Shown in pieces: positions 3,001 through 26,896 of a stretch of DNA of 32,669 bases. The stretch lies in IMG/VR virus record IMGVR_UViG_3300027769_000091, positions 1 through 32,669 of that record. One strand, 5' to 3'. The notes below the pieces were generated by a model. That model ran no database searches. It worked only from the letters and a program-made list of their open reading frames with translations, and was not told the origin of the DNA. Both the position numbers and the translations under genes were made by a program. The first letter of the stretch is position 1; each line of letters opens with the position of its first letter. The DNA is from a virus (Duplodnaviria > Caudoviricetes).

Positions 3001-6000
3001 GTTGCTGTTGGCGTCAGCTTTGACCTGGAGTATTACGGCGTCAACATCATGGTGCCGTTCCGGGCGATGATGATTAACCCGGCTTTCATTCGTGGAGAAG
3101 ATCCCGCCAAAGCAGCGCAGACCGTAGTTGGCACGATGATCCACGAGCTGGTTCACCACGCGGAGCGTAACCACAGTGAGACTGGATTTATTCCAGAGCT
3201 GCAGCGCATGTTCATGGAACTGTCCTTGTCGAGGGATTCAGAAGCTATTACCCGGCAGCTGCAGAATGTATTTAATAAATACCCGGATATAATGCGGGAA
3301 CTTAGGAGAATTCAAGACAATGAAAAAGAAAACCTCAAGCCCAAGGGCGTCCGACTCAAAGGTGACGCTGACACGACTGGTGTCGGCGGCATGGATGTCG
3401 GCCAAAAAGCCCGAGATGGTGCAAGCGCTGCTGCTAGGCTTTCTGCTCCCGGCGGAGCAAGAAGGGATGACAGCGACCTCCCCGGCATACGTCGAGCAGT
3501 TGAAGGCAGCGGTAGAAACCGCCCCTCTGGCGAAGAACGCAGAAGACCATCTTCGGCGGATGGCGGCTATGACCCAGGCCTAGCGTTCCGGGATCTGATC
3601 CCGCAGTTCAGCCGCGGCCAGAAAGACGTTCTCTCCAGAGAGCCAAAACTGGAAACCGCAGCTCAAGGAATCAAAGAAGGGACGGTAACCCGCGAACAAT
3701 ACGACGAGCTGGTCAACGCTCTAAAGCCGGTCACGCCGTATGAATCCGCTCCAAGTCCTGCCACAGAGGCGAAGATTCGGAGCGCGCTATCGGCTGACAA
3801 AGTTGACCGCATAGGCGCCCCCAGCAAAACACTCAAGGCCGGAGACCCTGTTGGCCTTCGACTGGATATCCCTGCATACGCCAACCACGGCGTGTGGGTA
3901 GTCTCCGTACACGAGCAGATCCCAGGCTTTGCTGCCGGCAAGTCCATCGGCTACGAAAGCGTGGCCTCGGTCACGAACCCCACTTTTGGCGTTGTTGAAA
4001 GCGCAGCGCTTAACATCGCTGCCGGGAAACCGAAAGCCACCATCGCGGTGATGAAAGGCGACTGGAAACCCGTAACTCCTAAGCAGGCCTCCGCAACTGC
4101 CAAACTGGCGCTCAAGTCCGACAACTGGATTCAGGTAGGCATGGACCCCACCAGGCATGCGTACTTTTACGACCGCGCCAGCATGGAGCCTGTTGTTTCA
4201 GCAGACGAAGCAATTCAGGTCGGGCCGCTCGTTCTTGCCAAGAACCCGGTGTACGGTAACAAAGAGGATTTTCGTTTTAGCCGCTCGCAAGGCGAAACGC
4301 CTAGCCAGCAACGCGGAATCAATGTTCGCAACGACGGCGATAACCTTTATGCCGATTTGATTGTGGATGGCGAGAAGACCATGGAGTCGCGTAACACCAA
4401 CAGCCTGCGTGCGTACGTTGGCCAGACCGTTGGAATTATTCGCACCGGCGAAGGACCGGCCAAGCTTATCGGCTCGGTCAAAATCGGAGAACCGATTGAA
4501 GTCGACGAACAGGAGTTCCGCGAGCTCGAGCCTGAGCACCTGGTGCCAGAGGGCTCAGCGTTTGACATCAAGCCCGGCAGCACAAAGTTTCTGTACCCAT
4601 TGACCGAAGCGCGGCGTTTTGATGAAGAGCGTGCCGTTGACTCGCGGGGTATCGTGGCGCGCAACGTGGCGTTCAGCCGCAGCCAGGAACCCACCGATAT
4701 CGAGCAGGCGCGGTTAAAGCGCTTCAGCCGTGCGTTCGGTGACGCCGTTCGCGAACGCGCCGGCCAACTCGCCGATTTGACCAACCGCCTCGCCGCAGAA
4801 GACAAGTACCTGGGCCTCGAAGTCGGAGACACGTTCCTCACGCAGAACCAGGATGGCGGGCGCTTCCGCCACCGCGTGCTGGCAAAGAGTGTGCTGCAAC
4901 GCAGGTCCGGCGAGTACGAGCTGAACGGAAAGAACTACACTCCTTCTCTGCGCGTGGAAACAATCGGGCCTGATGGCGAAGCGTCCACCGGCGACCTGAT
5001 CGTGGAGAAGTTGCGCGGCCGCGTCACTAAGATGGGCGGCCCTCGGTTCAGTCGCTCGCAGACCGACACGCCTGCGTTCAAGCGCTGGTTCGGTGATAGC
5101 AAGATTGTGGACGAGAACGGTGACCCAGTAATAATGGTTCACGCCTCCCCCCGCTCGGACATCTCTTCGTTCAAGCTTGGTGCAGATAACGGGGTCTGGT
5201 TTAGTCCATCCTTCGACACTTCTGAAGCTGATATAGTCGCGTCTGAAGGCCGAAAACTAATTTACAACCCTGATCCTAACAATTTTCCTGACGTTGCGGA
5301 AGGCATGACGTTTTACCCAGTTTATTTATCGATCAAGAACCCGGTACTTGACGACGATATGTTGACTGATTTTTATAACGGGGACATCACTGCAAGAGAA
5401 CTACTTGCCCAAGGTTTTGACGGCTTACTGTGGCCTGACGGTGTTGCGGTCGTTTTAAGTCCCACACAGATCACGTTCGCCATTGGCACCCCGGACGTCC
5501 GGTTCAGCCAGGCGCAGAAGTCCCCGCTCAAGCTTTACAGCGCGCTGGCCAAAGCCGTTGAGGCTGGCCCTGCTCGCGCGCCGAAGGACCAGTGGGCGAA
5601 CATCCTGCGCAAGCAGAAGTTCGTCACCGAAGAAGAGATCACCTGGACCGGTCTGGAAGACTGGCTCGAGATGCAGTCCGGGCAAGTGCCACGCGAAGCT
5701 GTTGCGGACTTCCTTGCGCAGAACGGTGTGCAGGTTGGTGAGGTCGTGTTGGGTGGGAGTACGCGGTACCCGCCGAACACTTTGATGCATCCGCAGTCTG
5801 GAGAGGTCGCCAGTGTTGAACAGTGGCGCGCGGACTTTGAAAGCATGGGCCGGGAAAACTGGTTTGGCCTACCCGAAGAAGAGACCGAAGATTTAGACTG
5901 GCAGATCAATTTGGTGGACGTTTCCGGCGATGAAATGTTCGGGTCTGAAACCCGCTTCGCACAGTACGTGCTGCCTGGTGGCCAGAACTACCGCGAGGTG

Positions 6001-9000
6001 CTGCTGACGCTGCCGACCGAGCAGCCGGACTTCAAGATCGACGACTTTATCGATGCTATGGCCGACAAGTACGGCCGTGAAAACATTTTTGATGAGTCGG
6101 GCAACATCGCCACCGTTAAAACCTCCTTCCCGAATATGCTGTCTGCAGAAGATCAGGCTGTGTATCGGAATATCCAACGCGAAAAGCCTAAGAAGTATCA
6201 GTCCTCCCACTGGGACGGCGTCCCCAACGTCTTGGCCCACGTCCGCATGAACGATCGCGTCGACGCCGATGGCGCGCGTGTGCTGTTCGTCGAAGAGCTG
6301 CAGTCGGACTGGGCGCAGGAAGGGCGGAAGATCGGTTTCGCTACAGGATCTTTGGCCGATGCCGAGATGGTAGCCACGATAAACAATTCCGCCAACGTGC
6401 CTTACTGGGAAATCAGTACAACCTCCGGTGATTTTGTCGCCAATGTGGTGGATGTCAGCACCAGAACGGGAACCCCAGAGCAAGCTATAACTGTTGCCAG
6501 AGAAATAGCGCGCCGCCGCGTGGACCGCCGGATACCAAAAGCGCCCTTCGTCCAATCCACCGACAGCTGGCTCCGCTTGGCGCTGAAGCGCGTCATCGCG
6601 ATGGCCGTCGAAGGCGGCTACGACAAGATCGCGTTCACCAACGGCCAGCAGAACGCAGAGCGGTACTCACTTGATAAAGAGCTGCGCGAGATCTCCTACG
6701 AGCCGGCCGGCGAAGGGCTTTATGAAATCAGCGCGACCAACCTTTCCGGCCGCGAAGTTATCAGCGAAGACGAAGTCACTTTGGACCGCATCGAAGAGCT
6801 GCTCGGAAAAGAGATCGCCGAAAAGATTTCGCGCGACGAAGGCGAACGCGAGGGGGGAGGCTACCGAGATTGGAGATACCTGCGGGGCCTTGACCTCAAG
6901 GTAGAAGCCAAAGGCATGCGCGCCTTCTACGACAACATCGTGCCGAAGACCCTGAATAAGCTGCTGCCGAAGATCGGTGGTGGGAAGGTGGAGCAGGTTA
7001 ATCTTGAATCCGACGAGGGCTCAAGCAAATACATCATCGACGCAGAGGACATCGGCGCCGACGAAGACTTTGAGCAAGAAGTCGTTATCCGTGATGAGAT
7101 GTCTTTGGAGGGGGTGGCTTCTTTCAACTCCATAGCTGAGGCTGACGCCTGGTTGGCTGATAACGACGTAGATGTCTCTGCGAAAATGCAGACCGGCTTC
7201 GCCGTCACCCGTGAGATGACCGACCAAGTGATGGACGCAGGTCTCCCACTCTTCAGCCGTCGTCAGAACATCTTCGGACAGCCAATGCCGGCGGGCACTT
7301 GGCAGGTTGGCGACAGTCGCATGGACGAGGTGATCTACTCCCTCCAAGACAAGCTGGTCGACACCAAGCGGGTGGTCGAAGCGATCGGCAATGTCGCCGA
7401 CAAGTTCGACGCCTACCTGCAAGAAACGCTCTACCACGGCAAGGTGTCTACCCGCACCACGGACTTCGCTGACAGCGAGCTGAAGCCCCTGATCGAAGCC
7501 ATGGGCAGGAACAAGGTCAAGATAGAAGACCTCGACGAGTACCTCCACAACCGCCACGCGGAAGAGCGCAACATCGCCATGGCGAAGCGCGACCCGAACC
7601 AGCGAGACGGGCTGTCCGGCATCACGACCGCTGACGCGAGGGCCTATTTGGCGGCCATCCCGTCTGCGCGCAGGGCACTCCTCGAAGGCCTGGCTCGCCG
7701 GGTGGACGCCATTACGGCCGGCACCCGCAACGCCCTGCTCAACGCCGGCTTGGAGTCGCAGGGGATGCTGGACGCTTGGGAGAACACTTACTCGGCGTAC
7801 GTTCCTCTCATGCGCGAAGAGCTGGACTACGATCCGGCCGGTGGCCCTGGCACTGGCGCCGGTTTCAACGTGCGCGGGGGCTCCTCTCGTCGCGCTGTGG
7901 GGTCGACCGACCGGAAGGTGGTAGACATCCTCGCCAACGTCGTGCTGCAGCGTGAGCGGGCGATCGTGAGGGCTGAGAAGAACCGGGTCAGCAAGGCGCT
8001 GTACGGCCTCGCGATCCAGAACCCTCTCCCGGAATTCTGGCTGCCGATCAACCTCGATGCGATGAAGGACCCGGCCGCTCTGCAGGCCGAGCTAATCGGG
8101 CTTGGGCTGTCCGTTGCTGACGCGCAGAACATCGCCCAGCAGCCCAAGGAGCGGGTCGTGGATCCGCGCACTGGCCTGACCACCGAACGGCCGAACCATC
8201 GCCTGCTAACATCTGCGAACGTGATCACCGCGAGGGTCAACGGGAAAGATCGGTTCTTGGTCCTGAACCCGCAAAACCCCCGCGCGGAGCGGATGGCGCT
8301 GGCGCTGAAGAACCTAGACGTGGATCATCTCGGCCGGGCGCTGGGCCTGATCGCGCAGGGCACCCGCTGGTTCGCCAGTGTGAATACCCAGTACAACCCG
8401 ATCTTCGGCGTGATCAACTTCCTGCGAGACGTGCAGGGCGGTCTGCTGAACCTGTCGTCCACCGAGCTCAAGGGTAAGCAGGGGGCGGTCTTGGCCGGCA
8501 CCGTGCCAGCCTTGCTTGGAATATCCGCAGGCCTCCGCACGCGCGGGGCCACCGGTCAGTGGGCGCAGCTCTGGCGTGAGTTCCAGGAGGTCGGCGGTCA
8601 GACCGGCTACCGTGACCAGTTCAGCCAGAGCGAAGAGCGCGCAAAAGCGCTTGAGAGCGAGCTCAAGGCCCTGTCCAATGGCACCGCCAAGAAGGCCGGC
8701 AAGGCTGTCGGGAAACTGCTGTCTGACTACAACACGACCATGGAGAACGCGGTCAGGCTTTCAGCCTACAAGGCCGGCCTGGACAAGGGCATGAGCAAGG
8801 AGCGTGCTGCAGCGCTGGCGAAGAACCTCACCGTTAACTTCAACAAGAAGGGCCAAGTCGCAACGCAGATGGGCGCCCTGTATGCGTTCTTCAATGCCAG
8901 CGTGCAGGGCACGGCCCGTCTGTTGCAGACCCTGTCCGGGCCTGCCGGAAAGAAGATCATCTACGGAGGGCTGCTGCTTGGCTCGGCTCAAGCGATGCTG

Positions 9001-9921
9001 ATGGCGATGGCGGGCTTCGACGAGGAAGAACCGCCGGAGTTCGTGCGAGAGCGGAACCTGATCATCCCGACCGGCGACGGCAAATACTTAACCCTACCCA
9101 TGCCGCTCGGTTTCAACGTGATCCCCAACTTCAGCCGGATCGTGACCGAGTGGGCGCTGTCGGGCTTTGAGCGCACCCCCCAGCGGGTGGCGCAGATCGC
9201 GACCTCGTTCTTCGAGATGTTCAACCCGATCGGCAGCGCAGGTCTGTCCGTTCAGACCTTGGCGCCGACGGTGGTGGATCCTCTGGTGGCGATAAGCGAG
9301 AACAGGGACTGGACTGGCACTCCGATCGCGCGTGAGGACTTCAACAGCCTTGACCCGACACCCGGCTACACCAGGGCGAAGGACACTGCGAGCGAGTTCA
9401 GCAAGGCGCTGGCTGAGTTCCTGAACCTGGCCAGCGGCGGCACCGAGTTTGCGCCAGGCGTGATCAGCCCGACTCCGGACCAGCTGGACTACCTGATCGG
9501 GCAAGTCACTGGCGGCATCGGGAGAGAGTACCTGAAGGCCGAGCAGACGGTGACCGCGTACTTGACCGGTGAGGAGCTGCCGACCTACAAGATCCCTCTC
9601 GTCGGCCGGTTCGGCGGCAACACCTCGGGAAGCTCTGCGGTGTCGTCACGTTTCTACGAATCGATCCGTCGGATGAACGTCCACAACAACGAGCTCGGCG
9701 GCCGACGGGAAGCAGGCAGGCCGGTGGGCGAGTACCTGCGCGAGAACCCGGAAGCGCGGCTGGCGCCCCAAGCCCTGCGAGCCTACCGGCAGGTGCAGGA
9801 TCTCCGCCGGCGGAAGCGAGAGATGCTGGAGCGCGATGCTTCAAAAGAGTCGATCCGCCGGATTGAGGCGCAGATCACTCAGCGGATGCAGCAGTTCAAC
9901 GATCGACTGGATCGTATGTGA
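1..9921 (+). CDS. Giant polyvalent phage protein (virion-associated/injected type), 5'-truncated; multiple enzymatic domains plus a C-terminal LPD38-like region
   Basis: Frame 1 is open from base 1, so the GTG at 19 is probably not the true start. Recognisable blocks: Gp88-like (CPQSAICESLC, RLNVTSD, FYDYTK, NGDNYDARFLD); GHKL ATPase (KEVFQNSFDA, DDGTGM, GGLGIAK, SGT); HELVH zincin motif at 3142-3156; ASCH (YADLIVDGEKTMESR); ART-PolyVal-like (TPAFKRWFGDSKIVDENGDP, PVYLSIKNP, GFDG); LPD38-like C-terminus (LPMPLGF, ENRDWTGTPI, PDQLDYLIGQVTGGIG). Confidence 0.85.
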   Translation, partial: AATSEDVTKAEAFEDSYGILPYTSAGQLTVDAKFSIKQSGDFGTHPILGIPINKNGSVSLYFPTDNATAQLVRREKLLRASDPSATRVFLTNESSAPKVAANPGDIQQPMAGANVLVQVNPDLVQLLKEHPDGRKDFFIPIAEGATFKAKMTKLFTLNAPRDQGLHSDRTLAEINDGISAAVNRLQAASTQARKVIVSAARKVLRADHNVGTLLGENDKLAKTRTGDYGIEYNGKRVYSLGLGLASAQKINNKQKLTSCPQSAICESLCLGETSGQNLLYGGVGQFRSGPRLAQYLKTEAMVVHPEEFTSVLYAEIASFRLAMMKEGKQPTVRLNVTSDFAPKVWEPLIKAFPDVMFYDYTKLATDPIAENHHLTYSSTGASQIVDGKLVENKLSNWPKMVQRLREGKNVAMAFTSKTDMPDFIVDEATGERFQVWNGDNYDARFLDPKPGDPANKLNKGMIVGLTNKDRTGDAQTAAARTDGFFMDYDRKRDGDTLTIRDPRTLGSAASRPVKIQFSRSQKETSGAIKATPGVDMVRMARLLGPQLYGNMSDIGLVTIKEVFQNSFDALKGAIQKGDKTRGLIDVEVDSYARTITITDDGTGMTPEIINKAFLTLAGTSKETDRASGGLGIAKMLFLFGNESLSLRTVRNGVESTLSTSGAELMASFSDPAVAPNIQTRPTSDPSGTAVTIKIPETYTDENGEVQSIDFPYKWSAGTLLESSPLLENIEVRLNGETLPIGANFPVDDYTVLANAKFAWGNMRVLVRPRKASEYGENMTVLSNGLYQFGDTLKKNPLDFWGPAAPFQFYLNIEPTVPADSPLYPIALNRKGFSMSAKSDFEALKKYLSVLYANKNDAESAQSFGELEQLSEDGKTFKRISLVVPEADQGSTLAINPGDKVEVREGRMYVNNREMPEITKESMAALVRDPGKFKIDPALIDPSRVLVHDNLTLSGVPFREVMRDSVGDAFDDFTFEVADVFKTLRDATAKVGGAKYSDVSDVAVGVSFDLEYYGVNIMVPFRAMMINPAFIRGEDPAKAAQTVVGTMIHELVHHAERNHSETGFIPELQRMFMELSLSRDSEAITRQLQNVFNKYPDIMRELRRIQDNEKENLKPKGVRLKGDADTTGVGGMDVGQKARDGASAAARLSAPGGARRDDSDLPGIRRAVEGSGRNRPSGEERRRPSSADGGYDPGLAFRDLIPQFSRGQKDVLSREPKLETAAQGIKEGTVTREQYDELVNALKPVTPYESAPSPATEAKIRSALSADKVDRIGAPSKTLKAGDPVGLRLDIPAYANHGVWVVSVHEQIPGFAAGKSIGYESVASVTNPTFGVVESAALNIAAGKPKATIAVMKGDWKPVTPKQASATAKLALKSDNWIQVGMDPTRHAYFYDRASMEPVVSADEAIQVGPLVLAKNPVYGNKEDFRFSRSQGETPSQQRGINVRNDGDNLYADLIVDGEKTMESRNTNSLRAYVGQTVGIIRTGEGPAKLIGSVKIGEPIEVDEQEFRELEPEHLVPEGSAFDIKPGSTKFLYPLTEARRFDEERAVDSRGIVARNVAFSRSQEPTDIEQARLKRFSRAFGDAVRERAGQLADLTNRLAAEDKYLGLEVGDTFLTQNQDGGRFRHRVLAKSVLQRRSGEYELNGKNYTPSLRVETIGPDGEASTGDLIVEKLRGRVTKMGGPRFSRSQTDTPAFKRWFGDSKIVDENGDPVIMVHASPRSDISSFKLGADNGVWFSPSFDTSEADIVASEGRKLIYNPDPNNFPDVAEGMTFYPVYLSIKNPVLDDDMLTDFYNGDITARELLAQGFDGLLWPDGVAVVLSPTQITFAIGTPDVRFSQAQKSPLKLYSALAKAVEAGPARAPKDQWANILRKQKFVTEEEITWTGLEDWLEMQSGQVPREAVADFLAQNGVQVGEVVLGGSTRYPPNTLMHPQSGEVASVEQWRADFESMGRENWFGLPEEETEDLDWQINLVDVSGDEMFGSETRFAQYVLPGGQNYREVLLTLPTEQPDFKIDDFIDAMADKYGRENIFDESGNIATVKTSFPNMLSAEDQAVYRNIQREKPKKYQSSHWDGVPNVLAHVRMNDRVDADGARVLFVEELQSDWAQEGRKIGFATGSLADAEMVATINNSANVPYWEISTTSGDFVANVVDVSTRTGTPEQAITVAREIARRRVDRRIPKAPFVQSTDSWLRLALKRVIAMAVEGGYDKIAFTNGQQNAERYSLDKELREISYEPAGEGLYEISATNLSGREVISEDEVTLDRIEELLGKEIAEKISRDEGEREGGGYRDWRYLRGLDLKVEAKGMRAFYDNIVPKTLNKLLPKIGGGKVEQVNLESDEGSSKYIIDAEDIGADEDFEQEVVIRDEMSLEGVASFNSIAEADAWLADNDVDVSAKMQTGFAVTREMTDQVMDAGLPLFSRRQNIFGQPMPAGTWQVGDSRMDEVIYSLQDKLVDTKRVVEAIGNVADKFDAYLQETLYHGKVSTRTTDFADSELKPLIEAMGRNKVKIEDLDEYLHNRHAEERNIAMAKRDPNQRDGLSGITTADARAYLAAIPSARRALLEGLARRVDAITAGTRNALLNAGLESQGMLDAWENTYSAYVPLMREELDYDPAGGPGTGAGFNVRGGSSRRAVGSTDRKVVDILANVVLQRERAIVRAEKNRVSKALYGLAIQNPLPEFWLPINLDAMKDPAALQAELIGLGLSVADAQNIAQQPKERVVDPRTGLTTERPNHRLLTSANVITARVNGKDRFLVLNPQNPRAERMALALKNLDVDHLGRALGLIAQGTRWFASVNTQYNPIFGVINFLRDVQGGLLNLSSTELKGKQGAVLAGTVPALLGISAGLRTRGATGQWAQLWREFQEVGGQTGYRDQFSQSEERAKALESELKALSNGTAKKAGKAVGKLLSDYNTTMENAVRLSAYKAGLDKGMSKERAAALAKNLTVNFNKKGQVATQMGALYAFFNASVQGTARLLQTLSGPAGKKIIYGGLLLGSAQAMLMAMAGFDEEEPPEFVRERNLIIPTGDGKYLTLPMPLGFNVIPNFSRIVTEWALSGFERTPQRVAQIATSFFEMFNPIGSAGLSVQTLAPTVVDPLVAISENRDWTGTPIAREDFNSLDPTPGYTRAKDTASEFSKALAEFLNLASGGTEFAPGVISPTPDQLDYLIGQVTGGIGREYLKAEQTVTAYLTGEELPTYKIPLVGRFGGNTSGSSAVSSRFYESIRRMNVHNNELGGRREAGRPVGEYLRENPEARLAPQALRAYRQVQDLRRRKREMLERDASKESIRRIEAQITQRMQQFNDRLDRM

Positions 9922-13096: not shown

Positions 13097-13326
13097 AGCA
13101 TGAACACCGGAGTCATCTCGCCCATGTTGGACCCGGCGACGTTGAAGTCGAAGAATTCGATTGCGTCCTCGAAGCCAATGTCTTCTGCCAGGATCTCGAT
13201 CACCTTCTCGTAGCTGTACACCACGACGTAAGTGCCGCAGCGGTTGGCCACGCCGAGGATCGCGTCGTCGTATCCGTCGGCGAACAGGAGCTCTTCGTAT
13301 TGCTCGATCAACTCTTCTCGGGTCAT
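13093..13326 (-). CDS. Small acidic phage hypothetical protein
   Basis: 77 aa, overlapping its neighbours on both sides; FADGYDDAILG...VVYSYEK...EDAIEFFDFN motif. Confidence 0.75.
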   Translation of the reverse strand: MTREELIEQYEELLFADGYDDAILGVANRCGTYVVVYSYEKVIEILAEDIGFEDAIEFFDFNVAGSNMGEMTPVFML

Positions 13327-13568
13327 AAGCTGTTCGGTATAAGGTAGCCCCGCTTCGGGGCGATAGTGGCTCTTTGCTTCATGTTGCTGCGGCTTTGAAT
13401 CCCAAGCGGTACGCTGACGGTCATCTCAATCGCCGACACGCCGAACGGGATTTTCTGGATCTTGCCGCCCTTTTTTAAAAAAGCCGCGATCTGTTCGCGT
13501 ATTTTTTCCGGGGTGAACTCAGAAGGCCGCGATACGGATTCTTCTTCGAGCGGTTGTTCGTCGCTCAT
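13323..13568 (-). CDS. Small protein with a SutA-like RNA-polymerase-binding motif
   Basis: Acidic N-terminus followed by REQIAAFLKKGGKIQKIP, which resembles the Pseudomonas SutA core (EEFL.RGGKVQEI). Confidence 0.55.
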   Translation of the reverse strand: MSDEQPLEEESVSRPSEFTPEKIREQIAAFLKKGGKIQKIPFGVSAIEMTVSVPLGIQSRSNMKQRATIAPKRGYLIPNSL

Positions 13569-15608: not shown

Positions 15609-16751
15609 TCAGTCCTCCTGGGACTCATCAGTGAAGTAACCCAGCGGCTCAATCGCGGGGCGTTTATCGGACTCCGGGGCGAGCGTAGGCTTGCCCTGCG
15701 GCTTCTCGATCAGTTTGCCGAGAACCTCGGCGAATTTTTTCTTGCCGACCAGCTTTTCCATGGCGGTGATACCGAGCAGGCTTCGCTCGTAGATCAGCAC
15801 CTCTTCAACGCCTGACGCAATGATCGCCTTCGCGACCTCGCCCTCGTCGGTGTACTTGCGGTTGCTTCTTCCCTCGACCAGCTTCCAGCCTGGCAGCGAG
15901 CCGCCGGTGGTCATCCGCTTGAGAGCCCACGCCTTGCTGTCGTTGAGCCACTTGATCACCTCGTCCGCTCGTAGCAGGACCTGTGACATCTGCGCCGGCG
16001 TCAGCTCATCGGCAGGCAGCAGCGCGAACGACGAGGTGACCAGCTCCTGCGCAGAAGCGTTGCGTGCCGGGCAGGTGAACCTGGCGCGGCAGAAGTAGTT
16101 CCCGCAGTGTTCCCCTGCGACCCGCTCGCCTTCGCCTTCCCAAGCGATCAAGGCCTTCGGCACGACGACCTGTTCGGCCCACTGCAGCAGCTCTTCAACG
16201 GTCAGCTCTTCGCTGCCCCAGTTGTCCATCCGCGGTTGCAAGACGTGCGTCCGGACGCGCTTGATGTCGTACAGCATCGACAGCTCGTTGTAGGCGCCGA
16301 GGCCGTAAAGACGCATCTGGCTGTTCTCCTGCGCCGACACGAAGGTCCCCTTGCCGTATTTCAAATCCGCCACCTCGACCAGGTCGTCGGTGATGATGAC
16401 AAGGTCGCCGGTGCCGAACCCTTCCGGCACCCACGGGCTGTAGTCGAGCCGGCGTTCGATCAGGATCACCGGGTCCTTGCAGCGGTCGTAGGCAGCGCCG
16501 ATCAGGGCGATAGCGTAATTGACCGCCGCCTGGACATGTTCAGCCATTTCCTTGCTCGCCAGCACGGTTGGCGATGATAAACCGGAGACGTGATCCGTCA
16601 TCACTTGCGCAAACAGCTCGTGCGCCAGCGTGCCTTCCGCTGCGAACGGGCTGTCCTCGTCCGGGATTTCGTCCTCCAGCTGCGCGCTGGGCGTGCAGAC
16701 CAGCCACTTGCCGCTGGAAGAGGCGCTCAGTTTGGCGTGCTTACGATCCAT
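15609..16751 (-). CDS. DUF2800 family PD-(D/E)XK (Cas4-like) nuclease
   Basis: HAKLSASSSGKWLVCTPS, AAEGTLAHE, GFGTGD, VADLKYGKG, NSQMRLYGLG, HC..FCRA...C and GWKLVEGRSNR; the usual neighbour of DUF2815 and Pol A genes. Confidence 0.9.
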   Translation of the reverse strand: MDRKHAKLSASSSGKWLVCTPSAQLEDEIPDEDSPFAAEGTLAHELFAQVMTDHVSGLSSPTVLASKEMAEHVQAAVNYAIALIGAAYDRCKDPVILIERRLDYSPWVPEGFGTGDLVIITDDLVEVADLKYGKGTFVSAQENSQMRLYGLGAYNELSMLYDIKRVRTHVLQPRMDNWGSEELTVEELLQWAEQVVVPKALIAWEGEGERVAGEHCGNYFCRARFTCPARNASAQELVTSSFALLPADELTPAQMSQVLLRADEVIKWLNDSKAWALKRMTTGGSLPGWKLVEGRSNRKYTDEGEVAKAIIASGVEEVLIYERSLLGITAMEKLVGKKKFAEVLGKLIEKPQGKPTLAPESDKRPAIEPLGYFTDESQED

Positions 16752-20559: not shown

Positions 20560-21868
20560 AGCGTTTCAGGTAGAGGCGCTGCAGCGCGTTGCGCAGCAGA
20601 ACCTGTACCTGGCTGCAAAGCCTGGGTCGGGCAAGACCGCTGTCGCGGTCCACGCTGCGCACCGTGCGCTGTACGACACGTTCACGGCCAGACGGGTGCT
20701 GGTGGTCACCCCCAAGCGGGTCGTGCCACAGTTCGCATCTGAGGCGGCGTCGTGGAAGTTGCCGTTGACGTTTGCGGAGTGCATGGGCGGCGAGCCGCAG
20801 CGTCTTGATGCGCTGGCGGCCCAGACTGATGTCCTCGTGACCAGCCATGAGCACTTTCCGTGGCTGTGCCGGGCGATCCCTGCCCGGCAGTGGGACTTCG
20901 ACCTGGTGGTGTTCGACGAAGCCGGCCGGCTGAAAGATCACAAGTCGACCGGCTTCAAGGCGATGCGGGCGATTATGAAAAAGCGTAAGCCGAGGCTGCT
21001 GTTGATGAGCGGCTCACCGCGGCCTGGGAGCGCGCATGAGCTGTTCGCGCCGGTGACCCTGCTGGATGGAGGGGCGCGACTGGGAACGACCTTGGGGCCG
21101 TTCAGGGCGGCGTATCTTGAACCGCACAAGGTAGACCGGAACACGGGTCGGGTGTTCAGCTGGAGGTTGCGGCAGGGGATGGAGGGCGCGCTGTACGGCC
21201 GGATTGCTGACCTGTACTACGCGGTCAGCCCGGATCTGGGGCTCAAGTACACCGAGATCGATGTTCCGGTCACCTTGCCTCCGGCGGTTCGGCAGGAGAT
21301 CAACCGCATGCTGACCGGCCTCACCGCCGACTGGGGGCTGGACGAGATCACGGCAGGCAACAACGCGGTTGCGATCGGGAAGGCGTTGCAGCTGGCCAGC
21401 GGGACGGTTTTCAACGATGGCGGGGGAGTGACCCACGTCCACGATGCGAAGATCGACGCGTTGCGGGAGCTGATTGAGCAGATGGACGGCGAGCCGCTGA
21501 TGGTCGCGACCTGGTGGACGCATGAGAGGGAGAGGTTGCTGCAGGCGTTTCCTGGGATGGTGGACATAACGACAGAGGGGGGCCTTGCAGCGGCTAAAGC
21601 CGGGAAGGCCCCCCTTGCGTTGATCCACCCGCAGTCGGCAGGGCACGGGATCGACGGGCTGCAGCATCACTACTCGGCGCTGGCGTACTACACGCTGCCG
21701 CACTCGTACGATTACTACAACCAGTTGCTGCGGAGGATCGTCAGAAGCGGGCAGACGGAGACGGTGAGGGTGTTCAGGTTGCTGGCAGGCCCGGACGTCC
21801 GTGTCCGAGATTCGCTGCAGGTCAAGATGGCCGGGCAGGAGGGGTTCTACGATTTTTTGACCGGCTGA
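20543..21868 (+). CDS. SNF2-like (SF2) helicase
   Basis: LRAFQ, Walker A KPGSGKT, VVFDEAG, LMSGSP, HPQSAGHGIDGLQ, QLLRRIVRSGQ. Confidence 0.9.
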   Translation: MSRNLRAFQVEALQRVAQQNLYLAAKPGSGKTAVAVHAAHRALYDTFTARRVLVVTPKRVVPQFASEAASWKLPLTFAECMGGEPQRLDALAAQTDVLVTSHEHFPWLCRAIPARQWDFDLVVFDEAGRLKDHKSTGFKAMRAIMKKRKPRLLLMSGSPRPGSAHELFAPVTLLDGGARLGTTLGPFRAAYLEPHKVDRNTGRVFSWRLRQGMEGALYGRIADLYYAVSPDLGLKYTEIDVPVTLPPAVRQEINRMLTGLTADWGLDEITAGNNAVAIGKALQLASGTVFNDGGGVTHVHDAKIDALRELIEQMDGEPLMVATWWTHERERLLQAFPGMVDITTEGGLAAAKAGKAPLALIHPQSAGHGIDGLQHHYSALAYYTLPHSYDYYNQLLRRIVRSGQTETVRVFRLLAGPDVRVRDSLQVKMAGQEGFYDFLTG

Positions 21869-22187
21869 CCGCGGATTGACTCACGCCGACCGCCTTGCAG
21901 GCCCGGTAGGCAGTCCAGCCGTGTTCTTTCATGAGCCGGATCGCTTGTTGTGTCCGGCTGACCGCGGTCGCAACGGGCGCCTCGATCTCCGACTCCGGGG
22001 GCGACACTTCGTATACGAGGTCGGTGTCCCAGTCGCCGGGATTTTCGGCCCACACGCGAGCGCGCAGCTTGCCGTTGGGCATCACTTCAGCCGAGTAGGC
22101 CTCGGCCCTGCCAGCGGCCATGTGCGCTTCCAGCTGTTGGCGGACAGCAGGCGCCCATGCCAGATTGAGGAACTCATCTTTTTTCAT
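21822..22187 (-). CDS. Hypothetical protein with a C-terminal helix-turn-helix
   Basis: QQAIRLMKEHGWTAYRACKAVGVSQSAVSR; last gene of the leftward cluster. Confidence 0.65.
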   Translation of the reverse strand: MKKDEFLNLAWAPAVRQQLEAHMAAGRAEAYSAEVMPNGKLRARVWAENPGDWDTDLVYEVSPPESEIEAPVATAVSRTQQAIRLMKEHGWTAYRACKAVGVSQSAVSRSKNRRTPPARPS

Positions 22188-22381
22188 AACGGCACCGCGT
22201 TTTTGATGTGCCGGCCTTTGCCGGAGCCGTCAAAACTGACTGCCTCGGCTTTCAGTTCGGCAGTGATGCCACGCTTGGCAGCGCGATTAATTATCGTGGC
22301 CGGCTTGGCCGTGCCGGCGATCCGAAACTGAACGAACTGCCCAGATTCTGTTTTTCCAGAGCAAAAAGTTGTGTAACGCAT
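22184..22381 (-). CDS. Hypothetical protein (65 aa)
   Basis: ATG is preceded by CAGGAGGAC and lies directly downstream of hammerhead A. Confidence 0.7.
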   Translation of the reverse strand: MRYTTFCSGKTESGQFVQFRIAGTAKPATIINRAAKRGITAELKAEAVSFDGSGKGRHIKNAVPL

Positions 22382-22393
22382 GCGGTCCTCCTG

Positions 22394-22448
22394 GGACTCA
22401 TCAGTACCGGCAGTTACCGGCAGACGCAGCGGGTGCTGCGTTTCGTCC
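22394..22448 (-). ncRNA. Hammerhead ribozyme A (type II)
   Basis: Minus strand: GGAC GAAA C GCAGC-ACCC-GCUGC GUC^ UGCCGG-UAACUG-CCGGUA CUGAUGA GUCC. All core nucleotides and three stems are present. Predicted cut between 22423 and 22422. Confidence 0.92.
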
Positions 22449-22766
22449 TTACGAGGTCTTGCGAGCCGAGACCTTGATCGTGGCGAAGGCCTCGCCCGTC
22501 GAGCTGTGGGCGGTGACCAGCTGACGGCTGGGGTTGAAATGTTCGGCGATGGCGCGCCAGTCGATGCTGAGGCGGCCGTCCGACCAGGCGATGCTGGCGC
22601 GGTACTGCTGGCCGTCGATTGCTTCGTAGCCGCAGCCGGAAAGCATGGCCTTGATTTCTTTTTCGCGGATTTGCAAGTCCGCGATGCGGGCTTTCAGGCC
22701 GCCGAGTTCGTCGACCATGGCGATCAGGTCGGCGTCAGTGATGATGGTTTTGAGTTGTGCGGTCAT
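22449..22766 (-). CDS. Hypothetical protein (105 aa)
   Basis: ATG 22766 follows CAGGAGGAC; the TAA stop abuts hammerhead A. Confidence 0.75.
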   Translation of the reverse strand: MTAQLKTIITDADLIAMVDELGGLKARIADLQIREKEIKAMLSGCGYEAIDGQQYRASIAWSDGRLSIDWRAIAEHFNPSRQLVTAHSSTGEAFATIKVSARKTS

Positions 22767-22788
22767 GCTATGTCCTCCTGGGACTTGT

Positions 22789-22843
22789 GGACTCATCAGT
22801 GCCGGCGTTACCGGTCAGACGCAGCGGGTGCTGCGTTTCGTCC
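22789..22843 (-). ncRNA. Hammerhead ribozyme B (type II)
   Basis: Minus strand: GGAC GAAA C GCAGC-ACCC-GCUGC GUC^ UG(A)CCGG-UAACG-CCGGCA CUGAUGA GUCC. Predicted cut between 22818 and 22817. Confidence 0.92.
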
Positions 22844-23668
22844 TTATGCGGCTTTGAGGTCGGCCATTTTCTCGGCCAGCGACCAGAGCGCGCGGTTCAG
22901 CTTCACGTCCTGCTGGATGCCGGTCACCGGACGCGTGGTCATCCGGCGGCCGGTTGTTGCGCGGCCACGCTGGCCGCCCTTGAGCAGGTTTTCCTGGATC
23001 ACGTTGTAGGTGTTCCAGAGGGTCGGCGCCGCGTCGTCGTTGCGGTGCGGTCGGATCACCTGTGCTGCTGACACCGGCGCTGCGTCGTCCCAGCGCAGCT
23101 TGATGGCCTCGTCAGCGAGCAGCAGTTGTTCGGGGCGGGACAGTTCGATGCCCTTGAAGGCTTCCTTGCGGTGTTCTATCTCCTGAACGTTGCGCAGGAC
23201 CTCGTAGCTGCCTTCGATGACGTTTCCGACTACGTCGCCGGAGTGCCGGATTTTGACGTTGTTGTGAACGTCACCGGCGATCAGGCCGTTCGAGCAAACA
23301 AACCGAAAATAGCCGGCTAGCAGGTGGTAGCTAGACGCCCCGTCGTGGCTGTTGATCAGGATGATCTCCGGCACTTCCCCGCTGCCGGCGTCGATCAGGC
23401 TGCGGTGGCGCAGGCGGACCATGTGGCGAGTGAATTCCCGTTTGCTGGCATCGCGGGTCATCGACTGGCGCACCTCATACGGGGCGAACCCTTCGCGCCA
23501 CATCCCGCGCAAGATGTCGATCGTCGGGATGTGAGTGTACCGCTCGGAGCGGCTGGCGTGGGCTTCGGTGGCCAGCACTGATGGAGCATAGCGGGCGAAT
23601 TGCTCGCCCGTGATTGGGGTCTGGCTGCGGAACGTGTTGTCTTTGGTGCTGGATGCGTAGCGGATCAT
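22844..23668 (-). CDS. DUF932 (YafZ/YfjQ/YubP-like) protein
   Basis: HASRSERYTHIPT, KREFTRHMVRLR, EIILINSHDGASSY, FRFVCSNGL, LWNTYNVIQENL and DVKLNRALW. Confidence 0.92.
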   Translation of the reverse strand: MIRYASSTKDNTFRSQTPITGEQFARYAPSVLATEAHASRSERYTHIPTIDILRGMWREGFAPYEVRQSMTRDASKREFTRHMVRLRHRSLIDAGSGEVPEIILINSHDGASSYHLLAGYFRFVCSNGLIAGDVHNNVKIRHSGDVVGNVIEGSYEVLRNVQEIEHRKEAFKGIELSRPEQLLLADEAIKLRWDDAAPVSAAQVIRPHRNDDAAPTLWNTYNVIQENLLKGGQRGRATTGRRMTTRPVTGIQQDVKLNRALWSLAEKMADLKAA

Positions 23669-23698
23669 GTGCGTGCCCTCCTGGGGCTGGGTTGTGAT

Positions 23699-23749
23699 GG
23701 ACTCATCAGTGCCGGCGTTACCGGTCAGACGCCTTACGGCGTTTCGTCC
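23699..23749 (-). ncRNA. Hammerhead ribozyme C (type II)
   Basis: Minus strand: GGAC GAAA C GCC-GUAA-GGC GUC^ UG(A)CCGG-UAACG-CCGGCA CUGAUGA GUCC. Stem III differs from A and B but still pairs and has a GNRA loop. Predicted cut between 23728 and 23727. Confidence 0.92.
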
Positions 23750-23991
23750 TGTATCGCGACTTTCCCGACCAGCTTGATTGCGCCGAGTTCGCGAGCGGCG
23801 ACACCGCCCACGTTGTAGGCCTGCCGCTTGGCGCCTGTCCGGCTGCCGTAGCCGGAATTCCCGTTGCCGCCGATGTCGATGACTTCGACGACTCTGCCCC
23901 GCTTGGGCGAGAGCAACTCAAGGCGGGCGGTGACTGCCTCTGAACGCCAGCCGGCGGGGGTGAATACTGCGGTGTTGTATTTCACGAGCAT
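23734..23991 (-). CDS. Hypothetical protein (85 aa)
   Basis: ATG follows CAGGAGGAC; its last codons and TAA lie inside hammerhead C. Confidence 0.7.
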   Translation of the reverse strand: MLVKYNTAVFTPAGWRSEAVTARLELLSPKRGRVVEVIDIGGNGNSGYGSRTGAKRQAYNVGGVAARELGAIKLVGKVAIQDETP

Positions 23992-24011
23992 TTTGTCCTC
24001 CTGGGACTGGG

Positions 24012-24236
24012 TTACGCGTAATTGTTTCGGATTAGAAAAGCGATTAATTCAAAGTGGCGGCCCTCTTGGTACTTGCCGCCCTGCGGCCAGATGTAGCTGA
24101 CCTCTTCGCCGTCGCGCAGGATAGTGCCAACCAATTTTTCAGCGCGGGCTTCGCGCTTTTCAAGGCGGGTCAGCGCCCTCTCTTCTGCTTTGAGGCGACG
24201 GCTGATTCTGTTATCAAGGAACTGTTCGATTGTCAT
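24012..24236 (-). CDS. Hypothetical protein (74 aa), first gene of the leftward cluster
   Basis: ATG 24236 (MTIEQFLD) follows CAGGAGGAC. The longer ORF-track version runs through non-coding RNA. Confidence 0.7.
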   Translation of the reverse strand: MTIEQFLDNRISRRLKAEERALTRLEKREARAEKLVGTILRDGEEVSYIWPQGGKYQEGRHFELIAFLIRNNYA

Positions 24237-24253
24237 GCTGTCCTCCTGGGACT

Positions 24254-24306
24254 CTTGTTTCGGCCTTCTGGGCCTCGTCAGTAGCGCAGCGTCAGCGCTA
24301 TACAAG
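24254..24306 (-). ncRNA. Hammerhead ribozyme D (type III)
   Basis: Minus strand: CUUG UA^ UAGCGC-UGACGCU-GCGCUA CUGACGA GGCC-CAGAA-GGCC GAAA CAAG. GUA cleavage triplet; predicted cut between 24301 and 24300. Confidence 0.92.
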
Positions 24307-24408
24307 TTGCCGGTTTGTCCTCTGAGGCATCCGCCCCGGCTCCCGGTGTTTGATCTGCTCCGGTCAGCAGTGGTTCGTCGTCGTGAGAGGCCATTTCCGC
24401 ACGCCTGA

Positions 24409-24424
24409 TACTTGATGTCAAGTA
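24409..24424. promoter_or_regulatory. Inverted repeat overlapping a perfect -35 hexamer in the divergent early/late control region
   Basis: TACTTGA-TG-TCAAGTA. Minus-strand TTGACA at 24421-24416 points into the ribozyme cluster. The -10 at 17 bp spacing (GGAAAT) is poor. Confidence 0.45.
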
Positions 24425-24521
24425 CTTGCCACAAACTTTTTTAAATATTTTTCGGCCATCTTGCACAAAGCCGCAGCTTCCCTGAGACTTTGACCGGCGA
24501 AAAACTTTACAGGAGACGCCG

Positions 24522-24743
24522 ATGGCCAGCAGGATCACGATAGACATCGCTGACGACGGCGCCGCCGCGGTCACGATGGAGATGGACGGCGCAGAGCCGC
24601 AGATGATGAATTTCCCGAGCGCTGCAGAGGCGCTCGACGCTGTCGGGCAGATGCTCGAGGGCACAGAATCGCCGGACGCAATGTGGCAGCAAGAGGCCGC
24701 AGCGCGCGAGGCACCGATGTCAACTGATGAGGAGATGATGTAA
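24522..24743 (+). CDS. Small acidic hypothetical protein
   Basis: CAGGAG SD; first gene of the rightward packaging operon. Confidence 0.7.
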   Translation: MASRITIDIADDGAAAVTMEMDGAEPQMMNFPSAAEALDAVGQMLEGTESPDAMWQQEAAAREAPMSTDEEMM

Positions 24744-24934
24744 TGGACGCATATCGCGCACGCAAGGGCGGCCCAGTGGGCAGCAATCAGGAGCAGGGAA
24801 AAGGTGAGATACCGAGCAAGGTGTCGGTGCCGATGCCTGGCACGAACGCCACGCAAAAGGCCTACAAGAAAACAGGCGGTTCGGTCAAAGCCCCCGCCGG
24901 CTTCGCTGGTGGCGTAATCCCCGGCAAGATTTGA
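24743..24934 (+). CDS. Small basic hypothetical protein
   Basis: TAATG coupling to the previous gene; GAGGAG upstream. Confidence 0.65.
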   Translation: MDAYRARKGGPVGSNQEQGKGEIPSKVSVPMPGTNATQKAYKKTGGSVKAPAGFAGGVIPGKI

Positions 24935-24935
24935 C

Positions 24936-25439
24936 ATGCCGAAGCACAACACTCGGGCGTCGCAGCTGCGCCGCCCTGAAACCGACGACGATGGCGCGCC
25001 GCTACTCGCGACCACGGCGTCTTTTGACATGCCTGCGCCTACTGGTCGCAGGCTGCCGAAAAACGCCAAGGGCGTAGTTGAGGGCCGCGGCATCGCAGGT
25101 CAGCAGGCCAACCGCAGCGGAACGATCAATCTGAAATCCGTCGCCCAGGCTTGCATCGACGAAGGCCTAGACCCTGCTGCTGAGATCGCGCGTGTGCTGC
25201 GCACACAGGTGCCTGCTCGCGACAGATCAGGGGCGGTGATAGTGGGCGAGGACGGCAAGCCGGTGATGATCGATCTGATCGATCCCGACACGAAAGTGCG
25301 CACTCTCACCGAGCTGCTGCAGTACAACCAACCCAAACTGAAAGCCATTGAAATGAAAATCAGCGGCACGCTTGAGATGAGCAGCGAGGAGATCGACGCC
25401 AGGCTCACTGCGCTTTTGGCGAAAGCGGTCTCAAAGTGA
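24936..25439 (+). CDS. Putative terminase small subunit
   Basis: Directly upstream of and overlapping TerL; ELLQYNQPKLKAIE pattern; size fits. Confidence 0.6.
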   Translation: MPKHNTRASQLRRPETDDDGAPLLATTASFDMPAPTGRRLPKNAKGVVEGRGIAGQQANRSGTINLKSVAQACIDEGLDPAAEIARVLRTQVPARDRSGAVIVGEDGKPVMIDLIDPDTKVRTLTELLQYNQPKLKAIEMKISGTLEMSSEEIDARLTALLAKAVSK

Positions 25440-26896
25440 CCGCGCAGCAGCAGCCCATAAACTTCTCGGCTCTCAGCCTGGATGAGCGGCGGGAAGTGTA
25501 TGACCTGCTGCGCGAGAAAGATTTGCGCGCAAAGCGCAATCGCCTGTCAGCTTATAAACCGTACGGTAAACAACTTGAATTTCATGCAGCCGCCACGCAG
25601 TATCGAGAGCGGCTCTTCATGGCCGCGAACCAAAGCGGCAAAACGTATTCCGGCGCGTACGAAGTAGCGATGCACGCCACCGGCCGGTATCCGGCGTGGT
25701 GGACCGGCAAACGCTTCCCGCGCGCCACCCGATGGATGATCGGTTCAGAGTCCGCCGAGCTCACGCGCAAAGGTCAGCAGCGTCTGCTGATCGGCCCGCC
25801 CGAGCTGCGCGACGAGTGGGGCACCGGCGCCATCCCGCACGACTGCCTCAAAGACACGAGCATGCGCCAGGGTGTCGCTGATGCGGTGGCCAGCTGCATC
25901 GTGCGGCACGTCAGCGGCGAAGACTCCGTGATCCAGTTCAACTCCTACGACCAGGGTCGCACCAAATGGCAGGCTGACACAGTCGACGGCGTGTGGATGG
26001 ACGAAGAGCCGCCGATGTCGATTTACAGCGAGGCGCTGACCCGCACCAACGCAACTCTGGGCATGGTTTTCGTGACGTTCACGCCGCTCATGGGCATGTC
26101 CGATGTAGTGCGCAGGTTCCTTTTGGACAAGCCTGACGGCACGACAGTGATCAGCATGACCGTCCACGATGTGGAGCACTACACCCCCGAAGAGCGTGAG
26201 CGGATCATCGCCAGTTACCCTGAACACGAGCGCGATGCGCGTACCAAGGGCATCCCGTCGATGGGCTCCGGCAGGGTCTTTCCGCTCGCCGATGAGGCGG
26301 TGGCCATTCAGCCGTTCGCGATACCCGCCCACTGGCCCCGAATCGTCGGCATCGACTTCGGCATCGATCACCCCACGGCAGCGGTCTGGCTGGCATGGGA
26401 CCGCGACACCGACACGCTCTACGTCACCGACACCTACCGAGTCAAAGACAACGCGATCGTGCAGCACGCGGCTTCAGTGCGCACCCGCGGCAATTGGATT
26501 CCCGTTGCCTGGCCGCATGACGGCCTGCAGCGTGACAAGGGTTCAGGCCAGCAGCTGGCTGCGCAGTACAAGGCCCAGGGATTGGCAATGCTGAAAGACC
26601 GCGCCACTTTTGAGGATGGCAGCAACGGCCTGGAGGCAGGGGTCGCACAGATGCTGGAACGAATGCAGACCCGCCGTCTGAGGGTGTTCAGTCATCTCAG
26701 CGAATGGTTCGAGGAGTTCCGCCTGTACCATCGCAAGGACGGCTTGATTGTTACGAAAGTTGATGACCTTATGGCGGCTACGCGATACGGTATGATGATG
26801 CGCAGGCACGCGAAGACGGCAGCCGAAGTGCAGCCACGCGGTTACACAGCGCCGGTCATCCCTTTCGGCGTATTTGACGAAGTGGCGGGGTACTGA
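25436..26896 (+). CDS. terL: Terminase large subunit (P22-like)
   Basis: QLEFH, Walker A AANQSGKT, Walker B VWMDEEP, TFTPLMG, nuclease motifs GIDFG..HPTA and DDLMAATRY. Confidence 0.95.
   Translation: MTAQQQPINFSALSLDERREVYDLLREKDLRAKRNRLSAYKPYGKQLEFHAAATQYRERLFMAANQSGKTYSGAYEVAMHATGRYPAWWTGKRFPRATRWMIGSESAELTRKGQQRLLIGPPELRDEWGTGAIPHDCLKDTSMRQGVADAVASCIVRHVSGEDSVIQFNSYDQGRTKWQADTVDGVWMDEEPPMSIYSEALTRTNATLGMVFVTFTPLMGMSDVVRRFLLDKPDGTTVISMTVHDVEHYTPEERERIIASYPEHERDARTKGIPSMGSGRVFPLADEAVAIQPFAIPAHWPRIVGIDFGIDHPTAAVWLAWDRDTDTLYVTDTYRVKDNAIVQHAASVRTRGNWIPVAWPHDGLQRDKGSGQQLAAQYKAQGLAMLKDRATFEDGSNGLEAGVAQMLERMQTRRLRVFSHLSEWFEEFRLYHRKDGLIVTKVDDLMAATRYGMMMRRHAKTAAEVQPRGYTAPVIPFGVFDEVAGY

Follow-up and report, generated by a model that had tools for sequence, protein, structure and literature searches.

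Four hammerhead ribozymes in one phage operon and the probable division of its message into gene-sized RNAs

What do ribozymes contribute to a phage operon in which they stand one after another at the gene junctions? This question is raised by the virus record IMGVR_UViG_3300027769_000091 (Caudoviricetes), whose entire length of 32,669 bases (estimated to be 58% complete) forms the window analysed here. A run of six small genes on its minus strand, 24236-21822, holds four hammerhead ribozymes. The motifs, their positions, the compensatory conservation of their stems and the turnover of genes at the accompanying repeats are directly observed, and we infer from them that the operon is transcribed, cleaved and its products stabilised. 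The ribozymes probably cut the message as it is made, and each swappable gene or gene pair would receive uniform hairpin-protected ends together with a hairpin at its ribosome-binding site (RBS).

We searched both strands of the window with a hammerhead descriptor (CUGANGA, GAAA, UH and three stems, in all three topologies), which requires the core-proximal pairs, so that these are always paired by construction. It returned four hammerheads, all on the minus strand, all in this operon and none elsewhere, and found 0 in each of 60 dinucleotide shuffles of the window. The first in the direction of transcription is a type III hammerhead at 24254-24306 (triplet GUA, predicted cut after 24301). Three type II hammerheads with the triplet GUC follow: 23699-23749, the weakest copy (predicted cut after 23728); 22789-22843, a mosaic of its two neighbours (predicted cut after 22818); and 22394-22448 (predicted cut after 22423), where the 3' strand of stem II doubles as the 5' arm of the RBS hairpin. 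The CUGANGA and GAAA core and an NUH triplet are present in all four, as are the three stems, with a bulged A after only two stem I pairs in two copies. The original prediction, made from the letters alone, had placed one type III and three type II motifs with intact cores, GUC or GUA triplets and three stems at these positions, and in this it was right. At E-value level, over 21500-25000, the type III copy matches RF00008 (31 bits, E 6e-4, gathering score 48.5) and the three type II copies match RF02276 (30.4, 24.7 and 19 bits; E 0.002, 0.063 and 2; gathering score 37); a search of the whole window keeps three of the four at E <1. Folding in isolation gives the hammerhead secondary structure for each type II copy (z -1.8, -2.4 and -3.2) and stems I and II for the type III copy.

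The placement of the motifs relative to the genes is regular. Stops at 22449 and 22844 end one base before the hammerheads 22394-22448 and 22789-22843, and the stop at 23734 falls in the stem III loop of the hammerhead 23699-23749, just as had been proposed; the proposed cut sites and the sizes of the predicted pieces between them (573, 910 and 395 nt) also agree with ours. From cut to ATG the spacings are 64, 59, 51 and 41 nt. The junctions 24012/23991 and 22187/22184 carry no ribozyme, so not all junctions are cut. Two AUGs occur within ribozyme cores, both probably by chance and neither preceded by a Shine-Dalgarno sequence: that at 22794-22796 (minus strand) is in frame with the 105-aa gene, which is listed with it as 115 aa, and that at 23704-23706 (minus strand) opens a short open reading frame (ORF) whose stop overlaps the start of the DUF932 gene. 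A survey with the type II pattern matched at least 144 viral loci, of which 80, falling into 59 groups (at least three of them from the window's clade), had their flanks examined. Two or more co-oriented hammerheads per locus, up to 8, were found in 24 of these 59 groups. Among the 125 type II copies in the 80 loci, 105 have a stop triplet, in any frame, that ends at most 3 bases upstream or overlaps by one, for a chance expectation of roughly 16-21% under window or uniform composition. Eight co-oriented hammerheads lie within ~6 kb in the viral contigs L015/L016, L030/L031 and L043/L044.

Relatives of the operon were collected by searches with DUF932 (13 loci) and with patterns of the leader (12 viral and 9 metagenome loci), which led to one clade. 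We kept 16 loci, the window included, and left out loci that match the window exactly over this stretch (L145, L146, L158, L165, L167, L173, L177), further occurrences of a contig already present (L160, L161, L162, L164, L166) and near-copies (L150, L169); five of the 13 DUF932 loci (L152, L153, L155-L157) are distant and have no hammerheads. The 16 clade loci contain 45 hammerheads. A leader followed by a type III hammerhead opens the operon in every one of them, with type II copies at the junctions. Among those loci that reach DUF932, ribozyme copy number varies from 2 to 4. Most type II copies (24/28) begin -1 to +2 bases from the end of the called gene's stop codon; in two others, one of them the window's, the stop lies inside the ribozyme, 16 bases from its start, and for the remaining two the ORF taken as reference had been miscalled or missed. 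Among the 21 distinct type II and 11 distinct type III copies, both partners have changed at many stem pairs, and we gave weight only to both-sided changes and outer pairs, since the pairs near the core are demanded by the descriptor. The fifth pair of type II stem III, for instance, is CG in 10 copies, AU in 5, GC in 5 and GU in 1, and pairs 2-4 of type III stem I switch in 3 of the 11 distinct copies. The claim that stems I and III vary yet keep pairing under selection is supported by these relatives, but not by the window in which it was made: its type II copies are mosaics and therefore not independent, and the window alone offers no more than two versions of stem I and two of stem III. 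At the same junctions as the window's subtype, the clade also has a second type II subtype, in which stem II is 3 bp long and a GGCC pseudoknot joins loop I and the tail (L148 2723-2779; L151 4370-4424 and 4921-4974, plus strand). In L174 (reverse strand, ~370 bases behind the leader), two tandem type III hammerheads surround a 70-aa gene, and the second has the alternative stem I known from L171.

The genes flanked by these ribozymes are not constant, the called ORFs of the 16 loci forming 27 protein clusters, a few of them likely miscalls, and the same gene occurs with or without a preceding ribozyme. A type II hammerhead lies directly upstream of DUF932 in 10/10 loci holding this gene, while the other genes vary: the 105-aa gene is upstream of DUF932 in 9 of the 10 and downstream in the window only. 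Between the window and L147, the homology blocks 23750-22852 and 22785-22379 appear in swapped order, with block edges that are ribozymes or RBS repeats. In L154 the 74-aa gene is missing, the gap being bounded by two RBS repeats of 15 bases. The mosaic ribozyme 22789-22843 records a similar event within the window, with 31 bases identical to the 5' half of 22394-22448 and 35 to the 3' half of 23699-23749, the two halves overlapping in 7 bases around the cut. Such a mosaic would be the expected product of unequal crossing-over or of the excision and re-entry of a two-gene circle. DNA recombination is the simple explanation of the shuffling, and the repeats, those of the ribozymes as well as those of the RBS, likely also supply the short homologies that it would use.

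Transcription would start near 24386, and the four cuts would likely yield a short leader RNA and four messenger RNAs (mRNAs) of one or two genes. The type III cut would trim the leader, to which only six bases of the ribozyme would remain attached, while the first mRNA would keep two hairpins. Each type II cut would end the upstream piece with stem III, as a hairpin bearing a 2',3'-cyclic phosphate, and begin the downstream piece with stem I, as a hairpin bearing a 5'-hydroxyl. Regardless of its neighbours, every gene would thus have identical protected ends and an identical RBS hairpin, an arrangement that would insulate its stability and translation and would suit a region of frequent gene swapping. 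A protein-dependent process of this kind is well known from phage T7, whose early mRNA is cut by RNase III at gene junctions into stable pieces. The present operon would likewise have a polycistronic phage message cut at gene junctions, but T7 processing belongs to a different family, with a host protein, long hairpins and 5'-phosphate ends. The window's motifs share core, triplet and topology with the RF02276 and RF00008 hammerheads, although their scores are lower than the gathering scores.

The original prediction had described phage hammerheads as lacking a clear function, which understates the literature: Perreault et al. 2011 (PMC3088659) report clusters of the same kind and the same inference. 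In the available portion of that paper, multiple hammerheads flank individual prophage genes and processing into gene-length mRNAs is inferred. The clusters of Agrobacterium tumefaciens (ardA), Azorhizobium caulinodans and Clostridium scindens resemble ours in having several hammerheads within ~2 kb that flank single genes or short blocks of non-constant identity. Cleavage as predicted is reported there for 3/3 arrangements of ~2 kb in vitro and for one in Escherichia coli. Since cores and stems are kept in our clade and like clusters cleave, processing of the present operon is plausible, an interpretation already published in 2011. The proposal that the message is processed into gene-sized RNAs therefore fits the anatomy, the conservation and the cleavage of like clusters, but does not extend to the two junctions without ribozyme. 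Unlike those prophages, the window's phage and its relatives yielded no integrase or resolvase in the three records searched (one 94% complete), and DUF932 takes the place of ardA. Compared with the clusters as the available text describes them, this clade adds gene turnover and order swaps at the repeats, a mosaic ribozyme, covarying RBS hairpins and a conserved 70-85 nt pseudoknot leader. The leader, the covariation of the RBS hairpins and the shuffling of cassettes had escaped the original prediction. In the haloviruses HF1 and HF2, as far as the same text goes, the HHphage hammerhead is similarly located just upstream of the gene that comes first in an early polycistronic transcript, with a 5' end mapped near the cut, but it is a single ribozyme with a variant core in an archaeal virus. 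Stabilisation by 5'-hydroxyl ends would be in keeping with one discussion sentence in the accessible part of bioRxiv 2020.07.22.216051, according to which such ribozyme-made ends slow end-dependent decay.

Several observations weigh against the processing of the message. None of the four copies reaches the Rfam gathering score, which is a curation cut-off and not a biochemical definition of a hammerhead; the expectation that Rfam models would recognise the motifs is borne out for all four at E-value level but not at this threshold. The copy 23699-23749 reaches only 19 bits, has a bulged A in stem I and is overlapped by the upstream ORF, and in its context a rival hairpin over the core is expected to prevail, stem II having a predicted probability of 0.01. 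Stem III of the type III copy has a probability of 0.2 in context, as calculated with ViennaRNA, whose model leaves out the core. Missing from the window's type II copies (at most 3 bp) is the 4-bp pseudoknot between loop I and the tail, 4-5 bp forms of which occur in 7 of the 21 distinct type II copies of the clade. The weak -10 box of the window is missed by a consensus promoter scan, and the loci compared are related, some pairs being near-identical, which reduces their value as independent evidence. Likewise, 4 of the 18 consensus hammerheads whose testing is described in the available text of PMC3088659 were inactive. Concerning RNA data, one run contained 0.15 of the words and was aligned together with a second run at 85% likeness. 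Two contigs cover 23326-23715 (depth 5.8-7.9), others 24507-26665, and two short ones lie near 20763-21865; they are of low depth, possibly DNA-derived and without indication of strand or ends, and none of those listed spans a cut site. One contig, strandless and possibly DNA-derived, ends within the predicted piece, 12 bases short of its boundary at 23727; we base no conclusion on these data.

The first ribozyme differs from the others in following a non-coding leader. The predicted sigma-70-type promoter (24393-24424, minus strand) comprises TTGACA at 24421-24416, a 17-nt spacer and the weak -10 box GGAAAT. TTGAC(A/G) is found in 10/10 distinct upstream regions, and the variable -10 hexamer, at 17-nt spacing, ends in T in 10/10. 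A 7-bp perfect inverted repeat at 24424-24409 overlaps the -35 box, with inverted repeats of 4-7 bp there in relatives, and could be an operator for the helix-turn-helix (HTH) protein encoded at the operon's end or a pair of back-to-back -35 boxes. The leader that the first cut would free extends over 24301-24386 (minus strand; start site estimated), and its conserved core of ~62 bases, 24370-24309, is 93% identical over 11 distinct copies. It contains a predicted H-type pseudoknot (24343-24370) with stems of 5 and 4 bp and an A-rich loop 3, both stems being paired in 11/11 distinct leaders and one pair per stem changing on both sides. A second domain (24309-24340) with nested stems, a GGAU loop and a purine-rich 3' bulge is also paired in 11/11 but, showing one-sided changes only, is weakly supported. 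The 17 proposed pairs hold in 187/187 cells, with 2 both-sided and 2 one-sided changes and 13 invariant pairs, in a structure derived from the same sequences that were scored; this is real but thin support. No Rfam family matches the leader, and readings as a hepatitis delta virus (HDV)-like, twister or pistol ribozyme were rejected by eye (wrong helix order) and in view of the lack of an Rfam hit. A looser GGAU-hairpin pattern matched 119 loci, those with a hammerhead behind it being clade members, and the pseudoknot pattern matched 51, with a hammerhead nearby in clade members only. A covariance model run on 100 selected loci, 39 of which had been chosen by the pseudoknot pattern itself, gave 3 strong hits (85-96 bits), all from the clade, and at most 22 bits for the rest.

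These features suggest another function for the first cut, which might chiefly mature the leader into a small trans-acting RNA, for example a decoy that captures an RNA-binding regulator or a defence protein of the host, with the later cuts serving as punctuation only. We regard this as unlikely. The core keeps its sequence and its pairs while the flanking genes turn over, and a type III hammerhead, the topology leaving the shortest upstream scar, lies behind it in 16/16 loci. However, most pairs are invariant and the covariation is thin, perhaps one event per pair, and the leader could equally act in cis, in antitermination, as a 5' cap or as a folding aid. Decoy small RNAs of the CsrB/RsmZ type carry several conserved GGA motifs in hairpin loops and operate in hosts with CsrA. 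The leader also has a GGA in a hairpin loop, but their number is not conserved (2-4 per leader, one in the conserved loop, the second conserved one being lost in L174). No phage-encoded CsrA was found in the 3 records searched, and the literature among the matches listed contained no direct precedent for phage-encoded Csr sponges; the reading as a CsrA/RsmA sponge is weakened. Phage pseudoknot decoys do exist, as illustrated in the available portion of Blower et al. 2012 (PMC3475682) by pseudo-ToxI, likewise a small pseudoknot RNA. Nonetheless, the leader is single-copy, without the tandem 36-nt repeat of ToxI-type RNAs and without an Rfam match, and its covariance model found only the clade among the 100 loci. 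A broader scheme, in which the locus would be an integron-like array with ribozyme joints, at which host-takeover genes are exchanged by recombination and which also insulate the RNA by giving each newcomer the same protected ends, its first ribozyme maturing a trans-acting 70-85 nt pseudoknot RNA directed against a host regulator or defence protein, is similarly speculative and, to us, rather doubtful.

Not all of these explanations are mutually exclusive, and the RBS hairpin leads to a second one. A 13-base RBS element is common to five gene starts of the operon and forms a hairpin with a 4-bp stem and a CAGGA loop at 24240-24252 (minus strand), with further copies at 24007-23995, 23687-23675, 22784-22772 and 22397-22385. 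Among 13 distinct variants at gene starts of the clade, 7 pair at all four positions and 6 do not pair fully, and the outer pairs change on both sides, giving compensatory variants in relatives. The hairpin may be either a repressor site or a standard start structure. In the last ribozyme, the 3' strand of stem II is the 5' arm of this hairpin, and cleavage is therefore predicted to let the hairpin form: in the uncut RNA the two are mutually exclusive (stem II 0.84, RBS hairpin 0.14), and the hairpin is predicted to form after the cut. A related element was found at 15612-15632 (minus strand), before the gene of the single-stranded DNA (ssDNA)-binding protein: the exonuclease gene ends there in codons that duplicate ~20 bases from the 3' half of 22394-22448 together with the RBS hairpin. 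As a fifth half-ribozyme it was rejected, having neither GAAA nor a stem III partner; two relatives keep the RBS hairpin without an intact core (a third locus is uninformative), and it is likely a copied start element, not a ribozyme.

Competition between folds might mean that the ribozymes cut only under certain conditions and so adjust or reduce expression, a terminating ribosome or a rival hairpin blocking the fold such that only untranslated message is cut; cutting may then speed decay or close the RBS hairpin instead of stabilising the piece. The frequent abutment or overlap of type II copies with stops (24/28 in the clade, 105/125 in 80 of the at least 144 surveyed loci) would agree with this, as would the exclusive folds at 22394-22448 and the rival hairpin at 23699-23749. 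But proximity to stops is also expected from compact genomes, at the other three copies the ribozyme has no bearing on the predicted RBS hairpin (0.9 or more), and the folding predictions ignore tertiary contacts and kinetics. We consider conditional cleavage improbable.

The ends left by hammerhead cleavage, 5'-hydroxyl and cyclic phosphate, can be joined by RtcB or by the ribozyme itself, and retrozymes, non-coding elements with hammerheads in terminal repeats, spread via circular RNA. The pieces between cuts might accordingly be ligated into circular single-gene mRNAs with a hammerhead rebuilt at the joint, as the mosaic copy, whose halves join within the 7 shared bases around the cut, could recall. 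Unlike retrozymes, the pieces are protein-coding. We find their circularisation very hard to sustain: a hammerhead rebuilt at the joint would cut it open again; neither RtcB nor reverse transcriptase was found in the three records searched (one 94% complete), although RtcB may come from the host; DNA recombination accounts for the mosaic more simply, and the phage has an exonuclease and an ssDNA-annealing protein; and Perreault et al. found no circular or spliced products, according to the available portion of PMC3088659. Least probable of all, the motifs could be neutral or selfish hitch-hikers copied with the RBS repeat and of little effect on the phage, which the varying copy number (2 to 4), the same gene with or without a preceding ribozyme and the distant DUF932 loci without hammerheads (5/13) would allow, but which the intact cores, the stems covarying across the clade and the strict position on the sense strand at junctions, with none in the rest of the window, contradict.

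The predicted processing concerns genes about which homology reveals little. In order of transcription, all on the minus strand, the operon encodes a 74-aa protein (24012-24236; phrog_16256, of unknown function), an 85-aa protein without family (23734-23991), whose final codons and stop extend into the next hammerhead, the 274-aa DUF932 protein (22844-23668; PF06067, E 2e-43), a 105-aa protein of a virus-only family without Pfam name (22449-22766), a 65-aa protein without family (22184-22381) and, as its last gene, a 121-aa protein (21822-22187) with a weak HTH match (PF13384, E 1e-4, below cut-off) and homologues in the same place in relatives. For DUF932, sequence comparison identified no relative of solved structure, and no publication on its function was among the matches listed. 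Among 21 cassette proteins of relatives, Pfam recognised NinX and a weak HTH and nothing else, and PHROGs assigned them to families of unknown function apart from one weak DNA-binding match. The operon would be an early one, to judge by its small genes and TTGACA promoter.

The phage context is clear from the terminase, portal, major head protein, family A DNA polymerase, primase and helicase encoded in the window, together with the exonuclease and the ssDNA-binding/annealing protein. The run of small genes is bordered by the helicase gene, converging on it, and, on the other side, by packaging genes that diverge from it. Cultured relatives of the phage are remote: the best capsid match is 42% and the best polymerase match 56%, and in a blastn comparison with 50,697 phage records the operon had only 3 short matches of 32-53 bases. 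A terminase search of genome contigs retrieved 2 loci, the better one (41%) on a contig of a Proteobacteria metagenome-assembled genome, too weak a match for a host to be assigned. Elsewhere in the window, an 81-aa ORF (13323-13568, minus strand) contains a SutA RNA-polymerase-binding domain (PF20661, 39 bits, above cut-off) and is a phage-borne look-alike of a host transcription factor, and a 3300-aa large polyvalent protein (19-9921, plus strand), probably cut off at the start of the record, has GP88-like, weak HATPase and LPD38 domains.

The purpose of clustered phage hammerheads has been in question since 2011, and a 2019 review (PMC6765202), in its available portion, states that more work is needed to define it. 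The present locus does not settle this question, but its 2.6-kb operon represents a compact and well-conserved test case, and its natural relatives supply junctions with and without ribozyme. If the leader were a trans-acting RNA matured by the ribozyme behind it, it would constitute a new phage small RNA.

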